Notes: generated from the sequence alone by a model not told the origin. Shown: positions 17,269 through 40,053, counted from the stretch's first letter. The stretch is DNA of 64,000 nucleotides from a virus (IMGVR_UViG_3300036792_000096:26658-90657); one strand, 5' to 3'. Program-made: numbers and translations.

Positions 17269-17526
17269 ATGGCCGAGGCAGAGAACGGCGCTGGCCCCCT
17301 CAGCCTCTCGGCAGCCGAGGCGCTGGGGCTCCTGAGTCTCCATTCCAAGGTTCCCGTGGACAGCATGGACCCGGAGGCGCTGGGGGCGGTAGGGCGGATG
17401 CACGCCGAGCTCTGGCTTATCATGGAGGACGCCCGTACCTTGCAGGCCGGCGCCGATGAGGCGACAGGCAATGGCGCTACGCCGAAGCGCAAGCCCCGCT
17501 CATCCGTCCTGACGCCTCGCACGTGA
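17269..17526 (+). CDS. Hypothetical protein
   Basis: Coupled to portal start. Confidence 0.6.
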   Translation: MAEAENGAGPLSLSAAEALGLLSLHSKVPVDSMDPEALGAVGRMHAELWLIMEDARTLQAGADEATGNGATPKRKPRSSVLTPRT

Positions 17527-20102
17527 ACCGGGTTCTCACCCTCGCCGGTTCACCGCAGCGCACCCTTGCACCGTCTGATGTAACCCTGACGCCTGTAATG
17601 AAGATGCCCCGCCGTCGGGGTCTGATCGCCTCGGCAGCGCCCCTCGCCATCGACCTCGCATCGTCCATGGAAGTGCGCAGGACCCGGCAGGCGCAGCAAC
17701 AGATGGCGTGGCAGTTCTTCCGAGGTATAGGGGCTTGTTGGTATGGGTCGATGTTCAAAAGTAACGCTATCTCTCAACTGCGCATTTTTCCAGCAGAGCA
17801 ACGGGGGACCCGAGACGACCCGGTTCCCATTGATGACCCGTATTCCTTGCAGCAAGTCTGTCTGGACGACATGGCGAACGGGTTCTCCGGGCTGGAGCTC
17901 GGTCACGCCCCCATCCTCGCCTCGGCAACGCTGCAAGACTCAGTAGCCGGCGAGGCGTATTGGTACTCACGTCCAGACGAGGAGACCGGGGAGAATCGCT
18001 TTGAGATCCTCTCCATTGAGGAACTTGAGATGGGAGGTGCTTCGGGGTTCCAGATCCGCCGCTACCCGGGCGCCATTCCCGAGCCGATCCTTCCCGAGCG
18101 GGGAGACAAGATCGCCCGAATGTGGACGCCCTCGCCGGAGTGGAAGGATCTGGCTACCTCACCGATGCTTGTGCAGCACGACACGCTCGAGGAGTTGTGG
18201 CTACTGATCCAAGCTGGTATCGCGGCGGCGAAGTCCAGGCTCGTCGGCGGCAAGATCGTCACCATCCCCGAGGAGCTGGACCTCGATACGCCGGCAGGCC
18301 CAGACGATGAGCCGACACCCTTTGAGACGGAACTCCGCCGGGCCGGCGCTACAGCGATTCGAGACCCCGCCTCGCCTCTGCGCTGGTTCCCGGTTCTGAT
18401 CCGGGGCAAAGCCGACTACCTCAAACCAGAGTTCATCCATGTCGTTGACCTCTACAAAGACATGCCCAAAGAGGTCAGGGACGCAATCCTAGAGCTACGT
18501 ACGCGCTTCGCCCATGACTTCGACCTACCTACAGAACTTTTAACGGGTTTAGGTGACATGACGCATTGGAACGCCTGGATCGTGGACTCCATGACGTGGC
18601 CCCACCTCCGCCCCGTCGCTCAGAGGGTCCTCGCTAACCTCACCGTCTGTGCCTACCGCCCGCTCCTCATTGCCGGCGGCATGGACCCCCGAGAAGCCGC
18701 CACACAGGTCATCGGCTACGACGAAGGGCTTGTCGTCAGCAAGCCCGACCGCTCCGCCGCGGCGACGGTAGGCGTGGAGCACGGGTTCGTCGGCAACGAG
18801 GCATGGATGCGGAGCAACGGGTTCGACCCGGAGACGGACAAGCCATCCGAGGTCGAGCGGGCACGGATCTTCGGTATGCGCTGGGGCGACCCGGGCTTGG
18901 CGTCCGTCGGCTCGCCACCCGGGATCTGGGACAAGGCCACCGGCCGCATCGCCACCCGAGTCACCGAAGAGGAGAAGGGTGTCCCGGGCGTCAGCCCCGT
19001 CCAGCAGGACGCCGGCCCGGCCGGACCCGTCCAGCCTGCACCGGGCCCTCCCGAGCCGAAACCGGCACCCGGCGCCCCCGTACCCGCCCCGCCCGCTCCC
19101 GCCTCACGTCCACCGACCCCACCAGCGCAGCCCGCCGTGGCAGCGTCGGGCAACGGGCACGGCAAGCGCCTGGGAACCTTCGCCGCCATCCCGGCCGCCG
19201 ACCCGCCAGCGAACCACGTCAAGCGAGCCAAGCTGAAGCGGTTGGGGACGAAGCTGGGCGCCATCGACCGGGACCTCCTCCAGCGCCTCTCCGTCCTCGC
19301 CGACGACCGCCTCCACGCGACCGTCAGGACCGTGGGAAGCAAGCTTCGGAGCGCCGCCCAGGGCCGGCCGGTAGCGCCTACGCTGCGGGGCATGGACACG
19401 CTTCAGATCCCCCGCATGCTCGGCTCCAAGGGCTCCCACGCCCTCGGCCTCAACGACCACCTCGAAGTAGATGCTGCTGCGGCATCCTTCGCCGCCAAGG
19501 CCGTACCATGGCTCACGAGCGCTCAGGAAGCGGCCTTGCGCCAGATCGCCGATGCCACCGGCCAGGACTACGAGGAGTTGGCAGCCGAGTCCGAGTCTCA
19601 GCGCTCCGACTGGATCACGGCGGCGGAGGCGGCTCTCACCGCGGGCTTCGCCTCCATGGCCTTGGGGTTCTTGTACAACCCCTCGCAGCCGGAAGGACCG
19701 GGTGAGATGCCCGACACCATGGCCCCGCGGGACGCCATCCGTAGCGCCATGCAGCTTGCTGGCGGGGGAGACCCCGGCTCAGGCCCGCCGCTGGGGATCG
19801 GGACGGGGCCGCTCGCTACCGACGCCTTGGATTCGGGCGGGGCGGCCGTGGACGGGTGGACGTGGGACTACACCGACAGCGCCCGCACCACATTCCCGGG
19901 CCATCTACAGTTGGACGGCATAGAGTTTGCCTCTTGGGAGGACGACCAATTGCTAGTCCAGCCTGAGGACGATTGGGTTGATACGGCGCCGTATTATTCA
20001 ATTTCTGATCATCCGGGATGCTCTTGCGGTGTCACCCCGACTGTGATTCCAGTGGAGGATCTGGCGGCATCCGACGGGGAACTAGTGGGAGTGGAAGCGT
20101 GA
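17523..20102 (+). CDS. Portal protein fused via Pro-rich linker to MuF-like head morphogenesis domain
   Basis: QQMAWQFF, VAGEAY, RMWTPSP, LLTGLGDMTHWNAW; C-terminal H..LDG.EF...DHPGCSC. Confidence 0.85.
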   Translation: MNRVLTLAGSPQRTLAPSDVTLTPVMKMPRRRGLIASAAPLAIDLASSMEVRRTRQAQQQMAWQFFRGIGACWYGSMFKSNAISQLRIFPAEQRGTRDDPVPIDDPYSLQQVCLDDMANGFSGLELGHAPILASATLQDSVAGEAYWYSRPDEETGENRFEILSIEELEMGGASGFQIRRYPGAIPEPILPERGDKIARMWTPSPEWKDLATSPMLVQHDTLEELWLLIQAGIAAAKSRLVGGKIVTIPEELDLDTPAGPDDEPTPFETELRRAGATAIRDPASPLRWFPVLIRGKADYLKPEFIHVVDLYKDMPKEVRDAILELRTRFAHDFDLPTELLTGLGDMTHWNAWIVDSMTWPHLRPVAQRVLANLTVCAYRPLLIAGGMDPREAATQVIGYDEGLVVSKPDRSAAATVGVEHGFVGNEAWMRSNGFDPETDKPSEVERARIFGMRWGDPGLASVGSPPGIWDKATGRIATRVTEEEKGVPGVSPVQQDAGPAGPVQPAPGPPEPKPAPGAPVPAPPAPASRPPTPPAQPAVAASGNGHGKRLGTFAAIPAADPPANHVKRAKLKRLGTKLGAIDRDLLQRLSVLADDRLHATVRTVGSKLRSAAQGRPVAPTLRGMDTLQIPRMLGSKGSHALGLNDHLEVDAAAASFAAKAVPWLTSAQEAALRQIADATGQDYEELAAESESQRSDWITAAEAALTAGFASMALGFLYNPSQPEGPGEMPDTMAPRDAIRSAMQLAGGGDPGSGPPLGIGTGPLATDALDSGGAAVDGWTWDYTDSARTTFPGHLQLDGIEFASWEDDQLLVQPEDDWVDTAPYYSISDHPGCSCGVTPTVIPVEDLAASDGELVGVEA

Positions 20103-20671
20103 CGGACTTAGGATCGGTGACTTACCTCTGTGCCTACCTCTACGTAAATGGCGTACCCGCCATCCACGGCGCCGAGTCGGGCTCAACCACGTCCCTCTGC
20201 GGCTACCCAGTGACGCTCTCGGACGACCCATTTCCCCCCACGACTCCAACTCTGGTATGTGACGAGTGCTGGAAAGCGGTCGAATATCCACCCGAGCGAC
20301 TCGCCTACATGGAGCGAGCGAATGCGGCGGTGCGAAACCTCCTTCCCCGGTTCAGTGCGCAGCGCGGAGGGATCCGCTACCGACCTCCGTCTGAGTGGGT
20401 GCCACCCCCGCCGTCGGTACCGCGTCCCACGAGGCGTGAGCGGGTAGGGCTCTGGCTCTACCGACACCTTCCCCGGCGCTGGGTATGGGAGGCACGCGAG
20501 GTGGGCCACGATGGCGACTATTGGCAGGTCTTCTGCGGTACCGAGGCATGGGCGCGCTCGGCCTGCGAATGGCAGGCGGGCAAGCCCATCGACTGGTCAG
20601 ACGAGGATGAGTCCTTCCCCTACTCGGTAAGGCGGGTTCGGGCCAAGGTGATCCGCCGGGTGGAATTGTGA
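20099..20671 (+). CDS. Hypothetical protein
   Basis: GTGA coupling; H...LCG...CDEC. Confidence 0.6.
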   Translation: MTDLGSVTYLCAYLYVNGVPAIHGAESGSTTSLCGYPVTLSDDPFPPTTPTLVCDECWKAVEYPPERLAYMERANAAVRNLLPRFSAQRGGIRYRPPSEWVPPPPSVPRPTRRERVGLWLYRHLPRRWVWEAREVGHDGDYWQVFCGTEAWARSACEWQAGKPIDWSDEDESFPYSVRRVRAKVIRRVEL

Positions 20672-20880
20672 GCGATTCCAGATCAGTCCGTGTTCAACTT
20701 CGGATTGAGGTCCGTCAGCCTCCACCTATTTCGGACGCCCTAAATGCGGACATCCTGAAGTCAGGGGGTCTCTGTGAGCCATTGGGGCCTGAATGGGTGG
20801 AATTAAGGCCGGGTGCGATGTTCTGGGTTCCAGAGGAGACGCCCTTTGGGCAGATCCTCATGCGTCGTAAGTCCGAGTAG
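20668..20880 (+). CDS. Hypothetical protein
   Basis: GTGA coupling. Confidence 0.5.
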   Translation: MSDSRSVRVQLRIEVRQPPPISDALNADILKSGGLCEPLGPEWVELRPGAMFWVPEETPFGQILMRRKSE

Positions 20881-20893
20881 AGGGAGAACGCCC

Positions 20894-21181
20894 ATGACAG
20901 TCCGTGACAAGCTGCACCAAATCGCCGAGGACATCCGCCACGCCTTCCCCGGTCACGCCGAGGACCTTCACCAGGTAGCGGACACGGTTGAGATCCCGCC
21001 CGACACGAACGCGCCGCCGGCCGAGCAGGTCGACCTCGATGCGGCGCAGGCCGAGATTGCGAACTGGCCCGCTGAGGAAGCAGCCGCAGTGGAACCAAGC
21101 CCCGCAGCAGAACCGGCTCCCGCTGCGGCCACCCCAGAGGCGCCAGCACCGCCCGCAGCAGCACCCCCAGCGGCCACGTAG
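20894..21181 (+). CDS. Ala/Pro/Glu-rich hypothetical protein
   Basis: GGGAG RBS, high GC3. Confidence 0.65.
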   Translation: MTVRDKLHQIAEDIRHAFPGHAEDLHQVADTVEIPPDTNAPPAEQVDLDAAQAEIANWPAEEAAAVEPSPAAEPAPAAATPEAPAPPAAAPPAAT

Positions 21182-21193
21182 AAGGAGAGCCAC

Positions 21194-22075
21194 GTGGGCT
21201 CGGCAGCGACTCTCGTGATCTACCACGCTGACTGCTGGGATGGCTTCTGCGCGGCGTGGCTCATGCACCGCTACTACCCGGGCGACATTGCATTCCACGC
21301 CTCCCACTACGAGGATCCGCCTCCCAATGTGCGAGGCCACCGCGTCTTCGTGCTGGACTTCTCGTACCCCAGAGAGACCTTGGAAAAGATGGCGAAGGCC
21401 GCTGATGAACTGACCGTGCTTGACCACCACAAGACGGCAGAGGAAGCCTTAGCCGGGCTCCCGTACTGCACCTTCGACATGACGAAGTCTGGGGGGCAGC
21501 TAACTTGGGAGTGGCTCATGAAGGAGGGGTACCCGCCACCCAAACCGGCGGCTACCGGTTCGGCTTGGGAGCCTCCCGAACCGCCGTGGCTCGTGGACTA
21601 CACGGCCGACAGGGACCTATGGCGCTTTGCGCTACCCCGGTCCCGCGAGGTCAATGCGGCCTTGCGTTCCTACCCGCTCACCTTCGACGCGTGGGACGAT
21701 CTGGCTCGTCGCGGTCAGGGCCGTCTCCACGACGGGTTCGACTCGGAAGCGTTTGCCGACGAGGGCTCGGCCATTCTCCGGGCGGAATCTGTGGCTGTGC
21801 AGGCGCATGTCGCTGGGGCCAAGGAAATCGACATCGACGGCTATAAGGTGCTTGCGACCAACGCCACATGGCTGCATTCCGAGATCGCTGGCACGCTGGC
21901 GAAGGGGCGCCCGTTCGGCGCCACATGGTTCGAGCGGGATAACGTCCACCAATGGAGCCTCCGCTCAGACGAGCACGGCATCGACGTGGGAGAACTCGCA
22001 CGCCAGCACGGCGGTGGGGGCCATGTCCACGCGGCAGGATTCGAGGTACCTATCCCGGGAAGGACGAGCCCATGA
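21194..22075 (+). CDS. DHH/DHHA1 phosphoesterase (nanoRNase-like)
   Basis: YHADCWDG, LDF, LDHH, DRDLW, SLRS, GGGGH..AAGF. Confidence 0.92.
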   Translation: MGSAATLVIYHADCWDGFCAAWLMHRYYPGDIAFHASHYEDPPPNVRGHRVFVLDFSYPRETLEKMAKAADELTVLDHHKTAEEALAGLPYCTFDMTKSGGQLTWEWLMKEGYPPPKPAATGSAWEPPEPPWLVDYTADRDLWRFALPRSREVNAALRSYPLTFDAWDDLARRGQGRLHDGFDSEAFADEGSAILRAESVAVQAHVAGAKEIDIDGYKVLATNATWLHSEIAGTLAKGRPFGATWFERDNVHQWSLRSDEHGIDVGELARQHGGGGHVHAAGFEVPIPGRTSP

Positions 22076-24684
22076 CCAAGACCGCCACCCGAAGCCGCCG
22101 CACCGTGACTGCTGCTACCCCTCCGCCTCCATCTGGCCCCACGGCACCGGCCCCAGACACGCCAGCGGCCCCCGTCGACCCCATGCCAGCATCCGGCATG
22201 GTCTGCCTGATCCTTGACGACGACACGACGAAAGCGCTCGACGCCGCCTTCCCGCCACCCGACGGCGCCACCGTTCCTGTTCCCAGACACGTCACCTTAA
22301 ATTTCTTGGGCGACGTGAGCGCGCTGGACCGGGACACCGTGGAATCGGCCATCTCCGCTGCCCTGTCGGACGCTGGCGAGGACGGAGACGCGGGATCGGC
22401 CGACGGCACGGAGACCATCTCGGGAGTCTTCGGGGGACTGGCACGGTTCACAGCCGAGACCGACGAGGACGGCAACGAGGGCAACGGCTCCCTGACGCCC
22501 ATCGTCGCCCTGTTCGACAGCCCCGGCTTGGACGATATCCAGGATGCCCTCGAGGACGCCCTGACGGCTGTGGGGATGCCAGAGCCGACGCATGGGTTTA
22601 CTGCCCACAGCACACTTTTCAGGGCGGACCTGGGGGACACGGCCACCGTCGCCTTCCCCGCCCCGCCAGCGGTCAAGGCCAGCTTCACCCAGATCGCCCT
22701 TGTCTGGGGCGACTACGCGGATGCGGCTAACGTGACCATGTTCCCGGTCGGGGGCTCGGGCGAAGGCACGCCCGCGGCAGCCCCTGCCCCCGAGGAGACA
22801 GGCCAGCAGGCCCACGTCATCAAGCACACCCATGCCCCGGGGGACCCGCTCAAGGACGAAGATGAGAACATGGGGGCGAAGCTGGCTGAGTCAGACATGC
22901 CGCCTCCGGTTGCCGCCGTGCCTGCCGCGCCCGATCCCGACGCCCCGGCACCCGCCGAGGAGCCGAGCGGCCGGCCCCCCGCCGTTCCGGGCCCGTTGGG
23001 AAGGTTCGAATGCCTGCTGGTTACCGAGGGTGAACCAACGGACGATGGCCGGATCATCAAGCCTGGCGCTCTGAGGTTCCGTGATCCGCCCCTTCCCTTC
23101 ACCTTCACCCTGATCGACTCGGGCCATGCCGATGCCCGCTTGGGCGGTGTCCTGACCGCCGTCACCCGAGACGGGGACGCCATCATGGGCGAGGGAATCT
23201 ACGCCGACAACGAGGACGGGTACGAGCTCAAGGCAGCCGTGGATCAGGGCCTGCTCACATGGGTGTCGATCGACGTCGGGGACGACACGGTCGATATCGG
23301 CCTGGATGCCGACGGCACGGAGACGATGGTGCTGCTGGACGGGCTGCTCATGGGCGCCTGTGCCCTTCCCTTCGCCGCGCAGAACACGACTTGGATCCGC
23401 TCCGTCCCCGGCTCGGAGGCGCCGATGAGTCCGGACGGGCCCGGTGGGCCGAGCATGCTCCCGCTCCCGGCCCTCTTGGCGTCCGCCGGGAAAGTCACGC
23501 TGCGGAGCGTCCCGACGGATGATTGGCAGTACGAGTCCCTGACGGCATCGGCCACCGTATGTGCCTGCGCTGGTCAGGACGAAGGGTCGGAACGCTTCGG
23601 AGCGCCTCTGTATCCCGAGGACGACTGGTTCAGCGTCCCACCGCCCGAGGACCTGACGCCGCTAACGGTGCTGGCGTCTGGGCAAGCCTACTTCCACGCC
23701 TCCGGGAACACCTGCCACATCGCCATCCCCGGAACGTGCATCAAGGCGAACGATCCGATGATGGATCGGGACTTCTCAGCGTTCCACAAGGGCCTTGACG
23801 GTCTCTCTCGGGGGATACTGACCGCCTCTGGCGAGCAGATTCAGGTAGGCCAAGTGACTCTGTACGGAGGCCATGCCGATGTGGCCCTGTCGGCTGACGC
23901 CGCTCGGCGGCACTACGACGAAACACGGAGCGCCATCCTTGATGTGCGCGCCGTGTGGGACTCCCGCAATGAGACCTTGTGGTGCTGCGGAGCCCTGCGC
24001 TACCGGGCGACGAAGGCGGAGGTGCAGGAACTGCGGGCCACAGGCCACGTCTCAATCGACTATCGCCTCCTGCTGCCTGACGGCAGCCCAGGACTACCGG
24101 GCCAGCGCGGAGCCAAGCTGCGCCTGATTGCCCTGCCCGTGATTCCTGTGGGTGGACTCCCGCCGATCAAGGCGTTCGCAGCGTCGGGCAACCTCGTGTC
24201 AGTGATCCTCTCGGATTCGAGCGAGTTCGGGCCGACGGGTGGCAGCGTCACGGACAAGGACTGGGACGGCTCGGCCAGCCGCTTCAACGATGCCCAGTAC
24301 CAGAAAGCGGCAGCCGCCTGCGACCCCGCGGACAAAGGAACCGTCAAATCCCGTTGTTTCCTCCCACATCACGAACCGGACGGCACGATCAATCGTAACG
24401 GCGTCCATGCTGCGGCGCAGCGCGTGGGAGCGCTCGAGGGCCGAAGCCCCGACGCTGTCAGTGCGGCCAAGGCCCATCTCCGCAACCACTACCGCACGGA
24501 CCTTGACGAGGATCCGCCCGACAGCCTCGGCCAGCCCAGCCAAGCCATGACCGCCGATGGGCTGCTGCTGGATCTGGCGAAGGACATGTACGGCCGACGG
24601 CTGGACGACGAAGCCTCCGCGCTGGCCGGGGTGCATCGCCAGGAAGTGGACCGGCTCGGAGGGAAGATCCTGACGCCCCGGTAG
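22072..24684 (+). CDS. Capsid maturation protease with N-terminal 2H phosphoesterase (LigT/Acb1-like) domain
   Basis: HVTL.FLG (22288) and F.AHSTL (22606); EGEPTDDGRII...PLP, VSID; position between portal and capsid. Confidence 0.8.
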   Translation: MTKTATRSRRTVTAATPPPPSGPTAPAPDTPAAPVDPMPASGMVCLILDDDTTKALDAAFPPPDGATVPVPRHVTLNFLGDVSALDRDTVESAISAALSDAGEDGDAGSADGTETISGVFGGLARFTAETDEDGNEGNGSLTPIVALFDSPGLDDIQDALEDALTAVGMPEPTHGFTAHSTLFRADLGDTATVAFPAPPAVKASFTQIALVWGDYADAANVTMFPVGGSGEGTPAAAPAPEETGQQAHVIKHTHAPGDPLKDEDENMGAKLAESDMPPPVAAVPAAPDPDAPAPAEEPSGRPPAVPGPLGRFECLLVTEGEPTDDGRIIKPGALRFRDPPLPFTFTLIDSGHADARLGGVLTAVTRDGDAIMGEGIYADNEDGYELKAAVDQGLLTWVSIDVGDDTVDIGLDADGTETMVLLDGLLMGACALPFAAQNTTWIRSVPGSEAPMSPDGPGGPSMLPLPALLASAGKVTLRSVPTDDWQYESLTASATVCACAGQDEGSERFGAPLYPEDDWFSVPPPEDLTPLTVLASGQAYFHASGNTCHIAIPGTCIKANDPMMDRDFSAFHKGLDGLSRGILTASGEQIQVGQVTLYGGHADVALSADAARRHYDETRSAILDVRAVWDSRNETLWCCGALRYRATKAEVQELRATGHVSIDYRLLLPDGSPGLPGQRGAKLRLIALPVIPVGGLPPIKAFAASGNLVSVILSDSSEFGPTGGSVTDKDWDGSASRFNDAQYQKAAAACDPADKGTVKSRCFLPHHEPDGTINRNGVHAAAQRVGALEGRSPDAVSAAKAHLRNHYRTDLDEDPPDSLGQPSQAMTADGLLLDLAKDMYGRRLDDEASALAGVHRQEVDRLGGKILTPR

Positions 24685-24694
24685 GCGGGATGCG

Positions 24695-25033
24695 ATGATG
24701 TTGCGCATGAACGAACGGCCGATGCGCACCCCCGAGGTGGCCCGCATGCTGGGCGTGTCGTTCCGGCAACTCGACTACTGGTGTCGTGCCGGCTTCATCC
24801 CCGACGCCGAATCTCCCGGCTCCGGGCGTCAACGCTCATGGACCGCAGAGCAGGTACGGGCTGCGGAGGAGATCGCCACCGTCTTCGTCCTGCGAAGCGA
24901 CGAGAACCGTCACTCCCGTCCCGACTACGGGCGGCTCCTGACCCTCGTGCGCAACCTCCGGGCCATGGGGCTCGACCCGCTGGAGCTGGCAGGGGTGAAG
25001 GCCGATGCTGAGGCGACTCCGAGAAGCGCTTGA
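24695..25033 (+). CDS. MerR-type HTH protein
   Basis: EVARMLGVSFRQLDYWCRAGFI...GSGRQRSW. Confidence 0.85.
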   Translation: MMLRMNERPMRTPEVARMLGVSFRQLDYWCRAGFIPDAESPGSGRQRSWTAEQVRAAEEIATVFVLRSDENRHSRPDYGRLLTLVRNLRAMGLDPLELAGVKADAEATPRSA

Positions 25034-25220
25034 GCGGAGGCGGGACCGCAGGCAATGTCCCCACCCGGAGCACCGGGTACGCTGCGTGCATGGAGACGAG
25101 GCGGTGCTCTGCCGCTCCCGGCGCAAGTGCCTTGAGTGCAGTCGCTACCTTCCCGGCCCGCTTCCCGAGCGGTGCTGGTACACCGGGGAGCCCCACGTGT
25201 CGCTGAGGAAGCCTGAGTGA
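25005..25220 (+). CDS. Small Cys-rich protein
   Basis: CPH...RCVHGDE...KCLEC. Confidence 0.6.
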   Translation: MLRRLREALERRRDRRQCPHPEHRVRCVHGDEAVLCRSRRKCLECSRYLPGPLPERCWYTGEPHVSLRKPE

Positions 25221-25579
25221 GCCTCATTGACGACCTTGCAGCACTCCTGCGGAACGCGCAGGATCACGAACGGCTGTTCGCAGCCATGACCCGATTGGAG
25301 ACGAGAATGGGAGCGATAGAGGACGCACTGGCAGCAGTGAACACGCAACTTTCGGACGCAGCGGCAGCCGCGAAGACCCGGGATACAGCAGAGCAGGCCG
25401 CACTGACGGCGCTGAACGACCACGTCGCGACACTGGAATCCGAACTCGCCGGAACCACGATCTCCGCGGCTGCGCAGGCGTCAATCGACGGGATCAAGGC
25501 ATCGATCGGTGTGATCGGCGGTCTCGATCCGGCTGCGGCTGCGGTCCCCCCTCCCGTCACGCCACCGGCCACGCCCTAG
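25217..25579 (+). CDS. Coiled-coil hypothetical protein
   Basis: Ala-rich heptads, Pro tail, GTGA coupling. Confidence 0.65.
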   Translation: MSLIDDLAALLRNAQDHERLFAAMTRLETRMGAIEDALAAVNTQLSDAAAAAKTRDTAEQAALTALNDHVATLESELAGTTISAAAQASIDGIKASIGVIGGLDPAAAAVPPPVTPPATP

Positions 25580-25879: not shown

Positions 25880-25913
25880 TTGACAAGTCTCCACATCGCC
25901 AATCATGATGTGG
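25880..25913 (+). promoter_or_regulatory. Promoter for major capsid gene with overlapping inverted repeat
   Basis: TTGACA-18nt-CATGAT; CCACATC-9nt-GATGTGG. Confidence 0.65.
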
Positions 25914-26041: not shown

Positions 26042-27913
26042 GTGCAACCCCACCCCCGCACCACAGGCTTCCGCTTTCCCGCGGGCAGCCCGTTCCCGCT
26101 GTGGCGACCGTTCCAAGTCTGTCTCGCCCCCGACGACGACAAGCCGGGCGCCGAGCCGCAGCCCCTGGTCCCCGAAGACCTCACCGCCCTCGACCAGAAG
26201 ACCCTCGCCCGCACCGAAGCGGACCTCCTGAAGAAGGGCAAGCGCCTCCAGGACGCCCCCGCCTCCGCCGAGACCGTGGCGGAACTCCGCGAGGTCGTGG
26301 GAGCGCTCGGCAAGGTCCGGGCCGAGGTCACCCGCCGAGCCGAGGAGGCAGCCCAGCACGAGGACGAGAAGGCAGCGCTCCTCGCCGAGCTCGAACCAGC
26401 CGCTGTCGCCGATGTCGAAGACCCCGAAGGCACAGAGCCCGCAGAGGGCGAGACCGAGGGCACCGAAGGCGAGCCGGCCGAGACGGCACCGGCCGCACCC
26501 GAGCCCGTGGGTATCGCCGCATCCGCCGACCCCGCGCCTGTCCCCGTCCGCACCCGGCCCCGGGCGCCGTCGGTCCGGGACATCCCGGCGAACGCCATCC
26601 GGCCCGAGCACCGCCCTCGCCTCGAAGCTCCCCGCTCCAAGGTGACCATCACCGCCTCGGGTGACGTGCCCGGCTTCTCCGCCGGAATGGCCCTGGATGA
26701 GAGCGAACTGGGGAAGGCCTTCGCTGACAAGGCCTGGTCCATGCTCCGCGGTGCGCCGAAGTCCCGGGACTACTCAACATCGTCGTCCGTGGTCTCCATC
26801 GGAGTGGAGTACCCCGAGGAGCGCACGCTCCGGGACAATGACACCACCACCTCCAACATGGCGAAGATCGAGGCGGTGACCGCCTCCGGGGCCCGCAAGC
26901 GGGGTCTGACCGCCAAGGGTCCGAACGCCATCGTCGCCGCCGGCGGTCTCTGCGCCCCCGTGGCCGTGGACTACAGCCTCATGACGCTCGGCACGCCGGC
27001 CCGGCCAGTCAAGGACGCCCTGGTGCGCTTCGGTGCCGAACGAGGCGGTCTCCGCTTCATCACCCCGCCGCACCTCAGCGATGTCGCCCCCGGCGTCTCG
27101 CTCTGGACGCACCAGACGGACGCCGCCTGGACAACGGGGATGCCGACGAAGCCCTTCGTCATCGTCACCTGTGGTACGGAGACCGTCGTGCAGGTCGACG
27201 CCATCACGCTCGGGATCGTCGTCGGCAACTTTGATCGCATGACCTTCCCGGAGCACTTCGCAGCTTGGTACAAGCTGGCGCAGGTCTACTTCGGCCGCTT
27301 CGCCGACTCGCACCTCCTCGACCAGATCGCAACCGCCTCCGTGGCGACCAACACCACCCAGGACCTTGGTGCCGCCCGGGACATCCTGGTCCACTTGGGT
27401 ACGGCTGCGGCCGGCTATCGGTCGCGCAACCGCATGGAGACCGACGAGATCCTCCAAGTGCTTCTGCCGGCGTGGACCCGGGACCTCATGCGGGCGGACT
27501 TTACCCGCCAGCACCCCGGCGACGAGGCGGTGCAGCTCGCGGACGGCGAGATCAACGGCTACCTGGCAGCCAGCAACCTCGAGCCGACGTGGTACCTCGA
27601 TGGCCCGAACACGGGCGTGAACCAAATCTTTACCAGCCAAGGCGCCGGGTCGCTCGAGGGATTCCCCGGCACCGTCCAGGCCTTCATGTTCGCCCCCGGC
27701 TCGTTCCTCCACCTGGACGGCGGAATGCTGGACCTCGGAGTGGAGATTCGGGACTTTACGTTAGATCTCCAAAATAGGGTAGGTGGCTTTCTTGAGACCT
27801 TCGAGGCAGTGGCGTATCACGGCGTTGAAGCCCTTCAAGTGAATATGCGGGTTTGTCCGTCTGGTGGAACGAGCGCTGCCGTTCTTCCATCCACGCCTTG
27901 CTACGGAAGCTAG
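26042..27913 (+). CDS. Major capsid (hexamer-type) protein with N-terminal scaffold region
   Basis: Coiled-coil/acidic N-terminus; AAGGLCAP..DY, RGGLRF, GGMLDLG..RD; resembles Rosebush/cluster B capsid family. Confidence 0.9.
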   Translation: MQPHPRTTGFRFPAGSPFPLWRPFQVCLAPDDDKPGAEPQPLVPEDLTALDQKTLARTEADLLKKGKRLQDAPASAETVAELREVVGALGKVRAEVTRRAEEAAQHEDEKAALLAELEPAAVADVEDPEGTEPAEGETEGTEGEPAETAPAAPEPVGIAASADPAPVPVRTRPRAPSVRDIPANAIRPEHRPRLEAPRSKVTITASGDVPGFSAGMALDESELGKAFADKAWSMLRGAPKSRDYSTSSSVVSIGVEYPEERTLRDNDTTTSNMAKIEAVTASGARKRGLTAKGPNAIVAAGGLCAPVAVDYSLMTLGTPARPVKDALVRFGAERGGLRFITPPHLSDVAPGVSLWTHQTDAAWTTGMPTKPFVIVTCGTETVVQVDAITLGIVVGNFDRMTFPEHFAAWYKLAQVYFGRFADSHLLDQIATASVATNTTQDLGAARDILVHLGTAAAGYRSRNRMETDEILQVLLPAWTRDLMRADFTRQHPGDEAVQLADGEINGYLAASNLEPTWYLDGPNTGVNQIFTSQGAGSLEGFPGTVQAFMFAPGSFLHLDGGMLDLGVEIRDFTLDLQNRVGGFLETFEAVAYHGVEALQVNMRVCPSGGTSAAVLPSTPCYGS

Positions 27914-39077: not shown

Positions 39078-39389
39078 ATGGCAGACGTACAGCCAGGGCA
39101 GCGGTGGCGGCTGGTCAACGGGATCGGCAACACCGTCCCGGTTGGCGAGAACGCCGATGCCGTGCCCCTACCGTCGGGCATCGTCGGGGTGGTGCGGGAG
39201 TTGGTTCCCGCCGAGGTGCCCGGGGCTCACAACTTCGAGGAGGACTGCGCGATCTTGGAGTTCCCCATGGGTGACGTGACCTATGAGAACGGAGTTCCCC
39301 AACTCATTCAGACCTCGCGGGCCGTGTCCTTCGGCCTCCAGCACTTCGATGACCCGGGCTACTTCGCGCAGGTCGGAGAGGGGGAGTAG
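39078..39389 (+). CDS. Hypothetical virion-region protein
   Basis: GAGGAG RBS. Confidence 0.65.
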   Translation: MADVQPGQRWRLVNGIGNTVPVGENADAVPLPSGIVGVVRELVPAEVPGAHNFEEDCAILEFPMGDVTYENGVPQLIQTSRAVSFGLQHFDDPGYFAQVGEGE

Positions 39390-39812
39390 ATGGCGGGCTC
39401 CGGCCAGTTCTCACGCCTCGGCAAGACACGGGCCCTGAACGTCGTTCTGGGGCTCTCAGCCCCGACGACGTACTCGGGCTACATCGCCCTCACCACGACG
39501 GCGCCGACCGACTCAACTATCGGCACGGAGTACGCTGCCACCGGCTACGCCCGCCAGGCGGTGGCATGGACCTCCCCCACGGCCGCCGACCCGCCCGTGT
39601 CGTCCAACTCAGGAGCCCTCACCTTCGGACCCTTCACGGCCGGTACTGGCTCGACGATCTCCTACGGGGAACTGACCGACCAGAGCGCCGGGGCGATCAC
39701 GGCCACGACCCAGATGTATGCGTGGTGGACGTTCGGGACTGCCAAGACGCCGGCCAACGGAGACTCGGCCACCATCGCCATCGCGGCCCTGTCCATGAGC
39801 TTCACCGTCTGA
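39390..39812 (+). CDS. Fibre-associated structural protein
   Basis: YIALTTTAP...YARQAVAW...SNSGALTF. Confidence 0.7.
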   Translation: MAGSGQFSRLGKTRALNVVLGLSAPTTYSGYIALTTTAPTDSTIGTEYAATGYARQAVAWTSPTAADPPVSSNSGALTFGPFTAGTGSTISYGELTDQSAGAITATTQMYAWWTFGTAKTPANGDSATIAIAALSMSFTV

Positions 39813-39813
39813 C

Positions 39814-40053
39814 GTGGCCTTCTACTCGGTGGAGGTGGCGGACCATGTGGAGCCGGAGCAGGCGCTCACGAAGCTCAGGCGCTTCGCTCAGCAGCTCGGG
39901 CAGGGGGAGGCGCTATTGGTGCCTCTCCCTGCCGGCTTTCCGCCCGAGGCGGTACCAGGGCTTGCGTTCCACGTCCGCCACATCATGGAGCAGATCATCA
40001 AGGGCGACGTGCCCGGGGAGGTGCCGGAGCAGACCGAGCCGGTAGCGATGTGA
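39814..40053 (+). CDS. Hypothetical protein
   Basis: Abutting ORF. Confidence 0.55.
   Translation: MAFYSVEVADHVEPEQALTKLRRFAQQLGQGEALLVPLPAGFPPEAVPGLAFHVRHIMEQIIKGDVPGEVPEQTEPVAM

Follow-up and report, generated by a model that had tools for sequence, protein, structure and literature searches.

A LigT-like 2H phosphoesterase domain predicted on a phage capsid maturation protease, with an independent DHH phosphoesterase gene upstream

Introduction

The head operon of the virus IMGVR_UViG_3300036792_000096 raises the question of whether two phosphoesterases encoded by overlapping genes act as one system, and of what such an enzyme does on a capsid maturation protease. The DNA analysed here, termed the window, is a stretch of 64,000 nucleotides taken from an IMG/VR virus record of 90.7 kb (bases 26658-90657) that is judged to be approximately 99% complete. 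The first gene (21194-22075) encodes a stand-alone, NrnA/NrnB-like DHH/DHHA1 phosphoesterase of 293 amino acids. The second gene (22072-24684), located between the genes for the portal and the major head protein, encodes an 870-amino-acid head-maturation protein with a predicted 2H phosphoesterase domain near its N-terminus. An earlier note, made from the sequence alone, had proposed that the two form a two-step signal-destroying module that is expressed with, and tethered to, head assembly. The interval to which it assigned the pair, 21194-22745, takes in the DHH gene but covers the second gene in its 2H part only. The present analysis favours a different reading as a reasonably probable one: the head protease and a LigT-like 2H domain form one chain, the 2H domain is carried in the head as nucleotide-degrading counter-defence cargo, and the DHH enzyme is independent of it.

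The 2H phosphoesterase domain

The LigT-like 2H domain occupies residues 38-232 (22183-22767) of the 870-residue protein and is encoded on the + strand, as are all head module genes from portal through major head protein. Its two HxT motifs are HVT (H73/T75; 22288-22296) and HST (H179/T181; 22606-22614), which were read by the earlier note as marks of a 2H fold. They occur as H73-V-T75-L and H179-S-T181-L, approximately 100 residues apart. Both are invariant in nine orthologues, which comprise the window protein and eight homologues of full architecture (alignment A1), and also in 19, 57 and 70 more distant relatives. A chance occurrence of two HxT triplets was considered and rejected, as conservation, profile and fold all contradict it.

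An exhaustive search with residues 38-232 recovered 127 cluster representatives. The Pfam model PF13563 matches eight of the nine orthologues (best E 8.7e-7) and, among the wider relatives, 66/70 and 57/57, often together with PF02834. A profile built from 19 mostly stand-alone relatives matched the PDB entries 1vdx (E 1.1e-9), 2fyh (E 5e-9) and 5h7e (E 9e-9). The same profile matched Escherichia coli LigT (E 7e-3) and the Acb1 structure 9q2g (E 8e-3, with coverage of the second half alone) much more weakly. The AlphaFold2 (AF2) model of the domain has a predicted local distance difference test (pLDDT) score of 86.4 and a predicted template modelling (pTM) score of 0.83, and Foldseek aligned it with E. 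coli LigT (5ldm) at E 5e-8. Because homologues, profile search and fold agree, the N-terminal domain is assigned to the 2H phosphoesterases, with a LigT-like branch as the nearest, even with a low Pfam score of its own.

The model was also re-aligned to solved structures with VIA-align, from which the Z ranking is taken. The highest score was obtained with the cyclic phosphodiesterase of Deinococcus (5h7e; Z 16.2, 171 residues aligned), followed by PH0099 of Pyrococcus (1vdx; Z 15.6), E. coli LigT (5ldm; Z 15.4, 162 residues aligned), human Usb1 (Z 14.5-14.8), AKAP18 (Z ~14), ns2 of mouse hepatitis virus (MHV; Z 12.3) and VP3 of Rotavirus (Z 11.5-11.7). Acb1 (7t26, 9q2g, 9q2y) reached Z 10.0-10.3, a score that is lowered by the shorter length of Acb1, and the Penguinpox cGAMP phosphodiesterase reached Z 9.6-10.0. 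The structural comparison with Acb1 and LigT that the earlier note had suggested thus bears out the 2H fold, with LigT-type enzymes (Z 15-16, E 1e-9) nearer than Acb1 (Z ~10, E 8e-3).

The LigT/ThpR-type enzymes, namely E. coli LigT, the Deinococcus cyclic phosphodiesterase and PH0099, provide the best profile and structure matches. They agree with the window domain in size and topology and share HxTL and HxTLxR-like motifs. They are free cellular enzymes, whereas the clade of the window domain is phage-specific, is fused to head proteins and has an extra conserved HGF before the second HxT. Acb1, known from T4 (gp57B) and Erwinia phage FBB1 (7t26/7t27), resembles the window domain in its 2H fold, its two HxT motifs and its phage origin (Hobbs et al., 2022; PMC9117128). 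It is, however, a compact protein of approximately 150 amino acids with a C-terminal lid, and the parts of that paper that bear on its architecture do not describe it as fused, while the window domain is part of an 870-amino-acid chain. The Pfam model of Acb1 (PF23474) did not match the window protein at E up to 0.1; it matched 5 of the 70 more distant clade members (best E 1.4e-8). By analogy, a role like that of Acb1 in destroying nucleotide signals is plausible for the window domain. The substrate cannot be read from the 2H fold by itself.

Among cultured phages, tblastn with the 2H domain retrieved nothing at E 1e-3, though a fold search finds relatives there. In BFVD, the 2H fold was found in proteins of 880-1100 amino acids from cultured actinophages, which are labelled 'RNA ligase', 'putative structural protein' (Gordonia phage GMA2) or 'capsid morphogenesis protein' (Microbacterium phage OneinaGillian). 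The Gordonia phages Tardus, MelBins and Lilbeanie likewise have it in a large protein of the head module.

The carrier protein

The 870-amino-acid protein consists, in order, of the 2H domain, a flexible Pro/Ala-rich linker, a protease of assemblin fold, a Cys/His-rich domain and a C-terminal module. The linker (residues 233-304; 22768-22983) is rich in Pro, Ala and acidic residues, is poorly conserved and varies in length in A1; the guanine plus cytosine (GC) content of its DNA is 0.74. The domain predicted to be a prohead serine protease, with the assemblin or T4 gp21 fold, spans residues ~305-463 (22984-23460).

Several lines of evidence point to a capsid maturation protease as the carrier. 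Residues 303-714 match by tblastn, at 25-29% identity, genes from actinophages that are labelled 'capsid maturation protease', some of them in fusion with MuF, and they also match phrog_859 and phrog_21470. The AF2 model of this 412-residue stretch (pLDDT 80) contains two confident domains with a disordered loop between them. Foldseek hits for the two-domain model had probabilities of 0.99-1.0, but E values of 4e-3 to 2e-2. Residues ~305-463 were aligned by VIA with T4 gp21 (5jbl) at Z 10.5 (root mean square deviation 3.0 over 120 residues) and with herpesvirus assemblins at Z 8-10.2. Two residues 47 positions apart, H352 (23125-23127) and S399 (23266-23268), are invariant in the nine orthologues and nearly so in 30 sequences, and are regarded as a putative catalytic pair. 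In addition, the gene is placed between the portal and major capsid protein genes. From sequence matches and the model, the carrier of the 2H domain is thus assigned as a capsid maturation protease, in agreement with the earlier note. It resembles the prohead proteases T4 gp21 and HK97 gp4 in its predicted assemblin fold and its conserved, putatively catalytic His/Ser pair.

The Pfam models S78, S78_2, Mu-like_Pro and U9 gave no match at E up to 1, and a Pfam search of the protease, the Cys/His-rich domain and the C-terminal module gave none even at E 1. When the whole-protein profile from A1 was compared with the PDB, the protease part was unmatched, and a single-sequence PDB search with the N-terminal 300 amino acids returned low-complexity noise alone. 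A viral scan with A1 recovered one relative, and a metagenome scan recovered one extra.

The Cys/His-rich domain (residues ~502-692; 23575-24147) is a companion of this protease type. Residues C548, H549, C556, H572, H601 and H614 are conserved in A1, and the AF2 blocks have pLDDT 85-95. No PDB or Pfam match was found for this domain. It recurs as a separate 'hypothetical protein', at 36% identity, in Microbacterium phages of approximately 190 kb. An IMG/VR phage (L120:8087-11453) encodes the 2H domain C-terminally in an open reading frame (ORF) of 795 amino acids, and the next ORF is the Cys/His-rich domain alone; judged by sequence, this appears to be a split or rearranged form of the window architecture.

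The C-terminal module and conserved tail comprise residues 725-870 (24244-24684), and the tail motif ADGLxLxLAKDxY is conserved in A1. The module may possibly serve as an anchor in the capsid interior. Within it is a segment of approximately 90 amino acids (DKDWDG...CFLPHHEPDG...HLRNHY; 24244-24560). A near-identical segment separates the 2H domain from the protease in the homologue P0013, and in other homologues the segment is divergent. The shifting place of this segment points to domain shuffling inside one protein family.

Fusion partners of the 2H clade

The wider clade was surveyed in two sets, 70 multi-domain representatives and 57 non-redundant IMG/VR ORFs (alignment A6, loci L086-L165), and counts are given below in that order. 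Fusions to Phage_portal were the most numerous (11/70 and 11/57). Other partners were Peptidase_S78 (2/70 and 8/57), Mu-like_Pro (1/70 and 6/57), the XkdF-type protease S78_2 (5/70 and 3/57), DUF2213 (3/70 and 3/57), MuF (3/70 and 1/57) and Phage_capsid (2/70 and 2/57). Zeta toxin (3/70 and 2/57) and ADP-ribosyltransferase families (1/70 and 2/57) were also found, as was NUDIX, in 3/57 ORFs and not listed for the 70. GNAT acetyltransferase models matched up to two of the 70 representatives. Rarer fusions among the IMG/VR ORFs were to inteins (two), an ATP-dependent DNA ligase (one) and a uracil-DNA glycosylase (one). Most ORFs bearing the 2H domain (69/82) are at least 500 amino acids long. 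The clade thus occurs almost only as a fusion to procapsid-interior proteins, of which it is a habitual passenger.

Fusions of this kind have been described before. Section 20 of Iyer et al. (2017; PMC5512222) reports 2H domains that are joined to MuF or portal and in no case associated with RNA ligases, and proposes that they are RNases or degraders of nucleotide signals. Similarly, section 3.4.5 of Iyer et al. (2022; PMC9503650) suggests from such fusions that the 2H domains are packaged in the head, injected and used to counter SMODS, cyclic-mononucleotide and CRISPR signals. The window protein resembles these 2H-MuF and 2H-portal fusions in that the same 2H clade is tied to a head-interior protein with no RNA ligase association. 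As in polyvalent-type fusions, an effector enzyme domain is joined to a morphogenetic head protein within the head module. The sections cited name MuF and portal alone as carriers, however, whereas the carrier in the window is a maturation protease. Further differences are that this protease is of an actinophage type not recognized by Pfam, that it has an extra Cys/His-rich domain and that a DHH gene is coupled upstream. The carrier is what makes the 2H-on-protease arrangement new; the class of fusions to which it belongs had been predicted in print before, and the arrangement is frequent in metagenomic phages.

The DHH phosphoesterase gene

The DHH gene starts with GTG at 21194, and a Shine-Dalgarno-like GAAGGAG (21181-21187) can be read six bases upstream. 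The preceding ORF has its stop at 21181, which leaves a gap of 12 nucleotides to the DHH start. Its TGA (22073-22075) overlaps the ATG at 22072 of the 870-amino-acid gene, and this ATG is preceded by GGAAGGA; the junction (22057-22075) consists of the GGGAAGGA ribosome-binding site followed by the ATGA overlap. The first 42 residues from ATG 22072 are conserved in seven of the eight homologues, so the overlap is taken to be a real junction.

Two gene calls of the source record, which concern 21194-21265 and 22072-22197, were rejected because they begin too late. P0139 (270 amino acids, start at M24) deletes the conserved DHH motif I, which makes GTG 21194, with its good ribosome-binding site, the credible start. 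P0005 (828 amino acids, start at M43) removes conserved upstream residues of the 870-amino-acid protein, and ATG 22072 likewise has a good ribosome-binding site.

The DHH protein matches phrog_4771, 'DHH phosphoesterase', at E 3.8e-76. With Pfam it scores just under both thresholds (DHH, 20.1 bits against a cut-off of 28.1; DHHA1, 24.5 bits against 25.9). Residues D55, D77-H78-H79, D139/D141 and G273-GGG-H277, which form motifs for the binding of metal and substrate, are invariant in 20 aligned sequences, that is, the window protein and 19 homologues. The complete DHH/DHHA1 enzyme with an ATGA overlap that the earlier note described is thus upheld. The family profile matched the PDB entry 6mtz (E 9e-8), NrnA and Rv2837c (E 7e-5) and GdpP (E 0.02). 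More than 3000 homologues were found, many of which contain PF02272 and are assigned the COG name NrnB/cAMP-cGMP phosphodiesterase; some phage records label the family a single-stranded-DNA-specific exonuclease.

The protein resembles NrnA/NrnB, Rv2837c (CnpB), TM1595 and the catalytic domain of GdpP in its DHH and GGGH motifs, its two-domain layout, its length of approximately 290 amino acids and its profile match. It differs from these enzymes in that it belongs to the phage accessory family phrog_4771 and has an invariant Cys in motif I (residues 11-17; 21224-21244). This motif reads H11-x-x-C14-x-D16-G17, with all named residues invariant, and the Cys replaces the first Asp of DxD. Such a substitution may point to an altered metal site or to an enzyme that is sensitive to redox state.

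Association of the DHH gene with the 2H domain

Both phosphoesterases are encoded in one late operon with intact active-site motifs. Their pairing is not conserved. None of 80 IMG/VR loci of the DHH family has a 2H domain within 10 kb, and none of 80 IMG/VR loci of the 2H clade has a DHH gene. Among whole 2H-bearing viral records, one of 50 encodes a DHH protein, and among those at least 90% complete, 0 of 11. In the sole such record (G009, the record of L101), the DHH gene (39234-40016) is approximately 34 kb from the 2H domain, on the opposite strand of the record.

The nearest complete relative of the window's phage, G001 (98.9 kb, with terminal repeats), encodes a 2H-protease of 46% identity and a DHH protein of 62% identity. 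The DHH gene is located at 1.6-2.4 kb and the 2H-protease gene at ~16.2 kb, approximately 14 kb apart. In addition, no DHH gene was present in the fetched flanks of L002, L166 and L086, three loci with the same architecture of the 2H-protease. The DHH family has no neighbour cluster in more than 8 of its 80 loci. Its recognizable neighbours elsewhere are PrtN, KilAC antirepressor, DNA methylases, RusA, integrase and DUF2303, and its usual context is among early or accessory genes. Because the pairing is not conserved across loci or whole records, the DHH gene is regarded as an independent, mobile accessory gene; it is not an obligatory second step, and the two-step module is not a conserved system. 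The tethering to head assembly claimed by the earlier note applies to the 2H domain, which is covalently joined to the protease, but not to the DHH enzyme, for which operon position alone was found.

Function of the 2H domain

In the reading favoured here, the protease part would co-assemble inside the procapsid and carry the 2H domain along, and maturation cleavage would then free the domain. Either in the late-infected cell or, following ejection, in the next host, the enzyme would hydrolyse a nucleotide of 2',3'-cyclic, 2'-5' or 3'-5' phosphodiester chemistry; a defence signal, or a product of one, is the most likely substrate. In this phage lineage, a member of the large, NrnA/NrnB-like DHH family (active on short oligonucleotides, pAp or cyclic dinucleotides) would have landed in the portal-protease operon and become translationally coupled to the protease gene. 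The DHH enzyme may help to clear the same nucleotide pool or short linear nucleotides. Carriage of proteins in the head is known from T4, in which proteins targeted to the prohead core (Alt and the internal proteins) are processed by the protease and injected with the DNA. The putative cargo in the window differs from these in being covalently part of the protease, so that its targeting would not depend on a short capsid-targeting sequence.

A connection with CBASS, an anti-phage signalling system based on cyclic oligonucleotides, is suggested by recent reports. Prohead proteases determine activation of, and escape from, type I CBASS (10.1101/2023.05.21.541620), and they activate CD-NTases by cutting the activation loop (PMC12991175). 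These findings lend new interest to the late-infected cell as the place where the 2H domain would act. The earlier note had cited prohead proteases as reported CBASS triggers, in agreement with these papers. Since prohead proteases activate CBASS, an anti-CBASS role of the 2H-protease is plausible by analogy.

Several points weigh against carriage of the 2H domain as counter-defence cargo with an unrelated DHH neighbour. The 2H domain of the window itself scores below the Pfam threshold for PF13563 (E 0.023, 15.2 bits, cut-off 27). Among solved structures, those nearest to the domain are cyclic phosphodiesterases of housekeeping type, and the modelled fold would suit an activity on RNA ends equally well. 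A folded domain of approximately 22 kDa must unfold to pass the tail. Finally, both genes co-occur in the small lineage of the window (G000, G001 and a 25.9-kb contig holding P0006 and P0140), and within that lineage the DHH and 2H enzymes may be functionally linked.

That co-occurrence also counts in favour of the module of the earlier note, spelled out here as one in which the 2H enzyme linearizes CBASS or cyclic oligoadenylate (cOA) signals as Acb1 does and the DHH enzyme degrades the linear pApA- or pAp-type products to mononucleotides, both being expressed with head assembly. Translational coupling through ATGA in one operon, intact active sites and activation of CBASS by prohead proteases (PMC12991175) are in keeping with it. 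Its chemistry is compatible as well, the nearest named solved relatives of the DHH protein, NrnA and Rv2837c, being annotated as oligoribonuclease/pAp phosphatases, and the Acb1 model of Pfam does match 5/70 of the 2H clade, up to E 1.4e-8. The same model misses the window protein, however, and the fold is nearer to LigT than to Acb1. With the near-complete lack of DHH genes at 2H loci and in whole 2H-bearing records (0/80 in each direction, 1/50 and 0/11), the ~14-kb separation in G001 and the L166, L002 and L086 loci without an adjacent DHH gene, the module is considered unlikely. A further alternative, possible if somewhat doubtful, is that the DHH enzyme has nothing to do with defence and is a nanoRNase or nucleotide-salvage enzyme, or a RecJ-like exonuclease serving the phage's DNA synthesis or recombination, placed in the head operon by an insertion accident. 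The lack of a conserved partner, neighbours such as RusA, DNA methylases, integrase, antirepressor and DUF2303, the exonuclease annotation in several phage records and the DHH-less portal-to-protease interval of G001 all fit this view. Phage DHH phosphodiesterases have, on the other hand, been predicted to counter SMODS and type III signals (Iyer et al., 2021; PMC7824862 section 3.4.8). Accessory regions rich in methylases are typical anti-defence islands as well, and a replication enzyme tightly coupled to a late gene would be unusual.

Other alternatives concern the 2H domain itself. It could heal RNA ends as a 2',3'-cyclic phosphodiesterase, mending tRNA or mRNA cut by metal-independent host RNases such as anticodon nucleases and toxins, while the DHH enzyme clears short RNA fragments. 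The closest structures are indeed LigT/ThpR-type RNA 2',3'-cyclic phosphodiesterases (Z 15-16, profile E 1e-9), and SEA-PHAGES-style annotations name such domains 'RNA ligase'. A search of the 90.7-kb genome for repair partners, namely RNA ligase (PF09414), RtcB (PF01139) and an AAA_33-type kinase (PF13671), found none, and RNA repair is for this reason ranked low. Section 20 of PMC5512222 states that polyvalent-type 2H domains are in no case found associated with RNA ligases, and it is difficult to see why a repair enzyme should be fused to a head-interior protein; end healing is therefore held to be highly improbable. Only a little less improbable is an injected RNase, Usb1-like or of another 2H type, that attacks host RNA (CRISPR RNA, tRNA or mRNA) on entry, which is the first of the two options given in that section. 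Human Usb1 ranks high in the structural comparison (Z 14.5-14.8), and the architecture parallels the fusions of PBECR RNases to MuF or portal described in sections 19-20 of the same paper. No RNA-binding module is evident from Pfam in the 870-amino-acid protein, however, and sequence alone does not separate such an RNase from an enzyme that degrades signals. It is also conceivable, but quite unlikely, that the protein is a trigger with a built-in antidote. The 2H domain, as a degrader of the signal, would then be welded to the protease, whose activity many CBASS cyclases sense (PMC12991175), and the co-translated DHH enzyme would clear the linear products, such that every trigger made late in infection brings the means to erase the alarm that it provokes; packaging for the next host would be at most one purpose among others. 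As a general explanation this is opposed by the presence of the same 2H domain on non-proteases, namely portal, MuF and capsid proteins.

Carriage of the 2H domain in the head as counter-defence cargo would, if true, have wider consequences. If 2H domains in capsids, or beside the protease, degrade defence nucleotides, counter-defence carriage would extend to a large class of phage head proteins, and in the fusion of the window an evasion enzyme would be physically joined to the prohead protease, whose role as a CBASS trigger has newly been reported. The presence of the same domain in large head-module proteins of cultured actinophages makes the prediction directly testable. The 'two-step module' of DHH and 2H enzymes, being a local accident of gene order, should not spread in annotations.

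Organization of the head operon

The GC content of the window is approximately 65%, and the cultured phages nearest by head genes infect Microbacterium, Arthrobacter, Gordonia and Mycobacterium. The portal gene (17523-20102) matches phrog_776 (E 7e-53) and the gene of the major head protein (26042-27913) matches phrog_777 (E 3e-69). Between portal and DHH gene are three small ORFs (20018-21181) for which no Pfam or PHROG match was found; their third-position GC, 0.59-0.74, is below that of the neighbouring genes. The related phage G001 has a different interval between portal and protease, without the DHH gene, which suggests a variable insertion spot at 20018-21181 in the head operon.

Downstream of the 870-amino-acid gene are a gene for a MerR-type helix-turn-helix protein (24695-25033; PF13411, E 1.6e-6) and a coiled-coil, scaffold-like ORF of 120 amino acids (25217-25579). 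The place of the former, between protease and coiled-coil ORF, is unusual for a regulator. A consensus scan from portal to the 870-amino-acid gene showed no promoter- or terminator-like site. The sole strong sigma-70-like promoter match in the region 16.5-28.5 kb (TTGACA-18-CATGAT; 25880-25909) is located in the gap of approximately 460 bp before the capsid gene.

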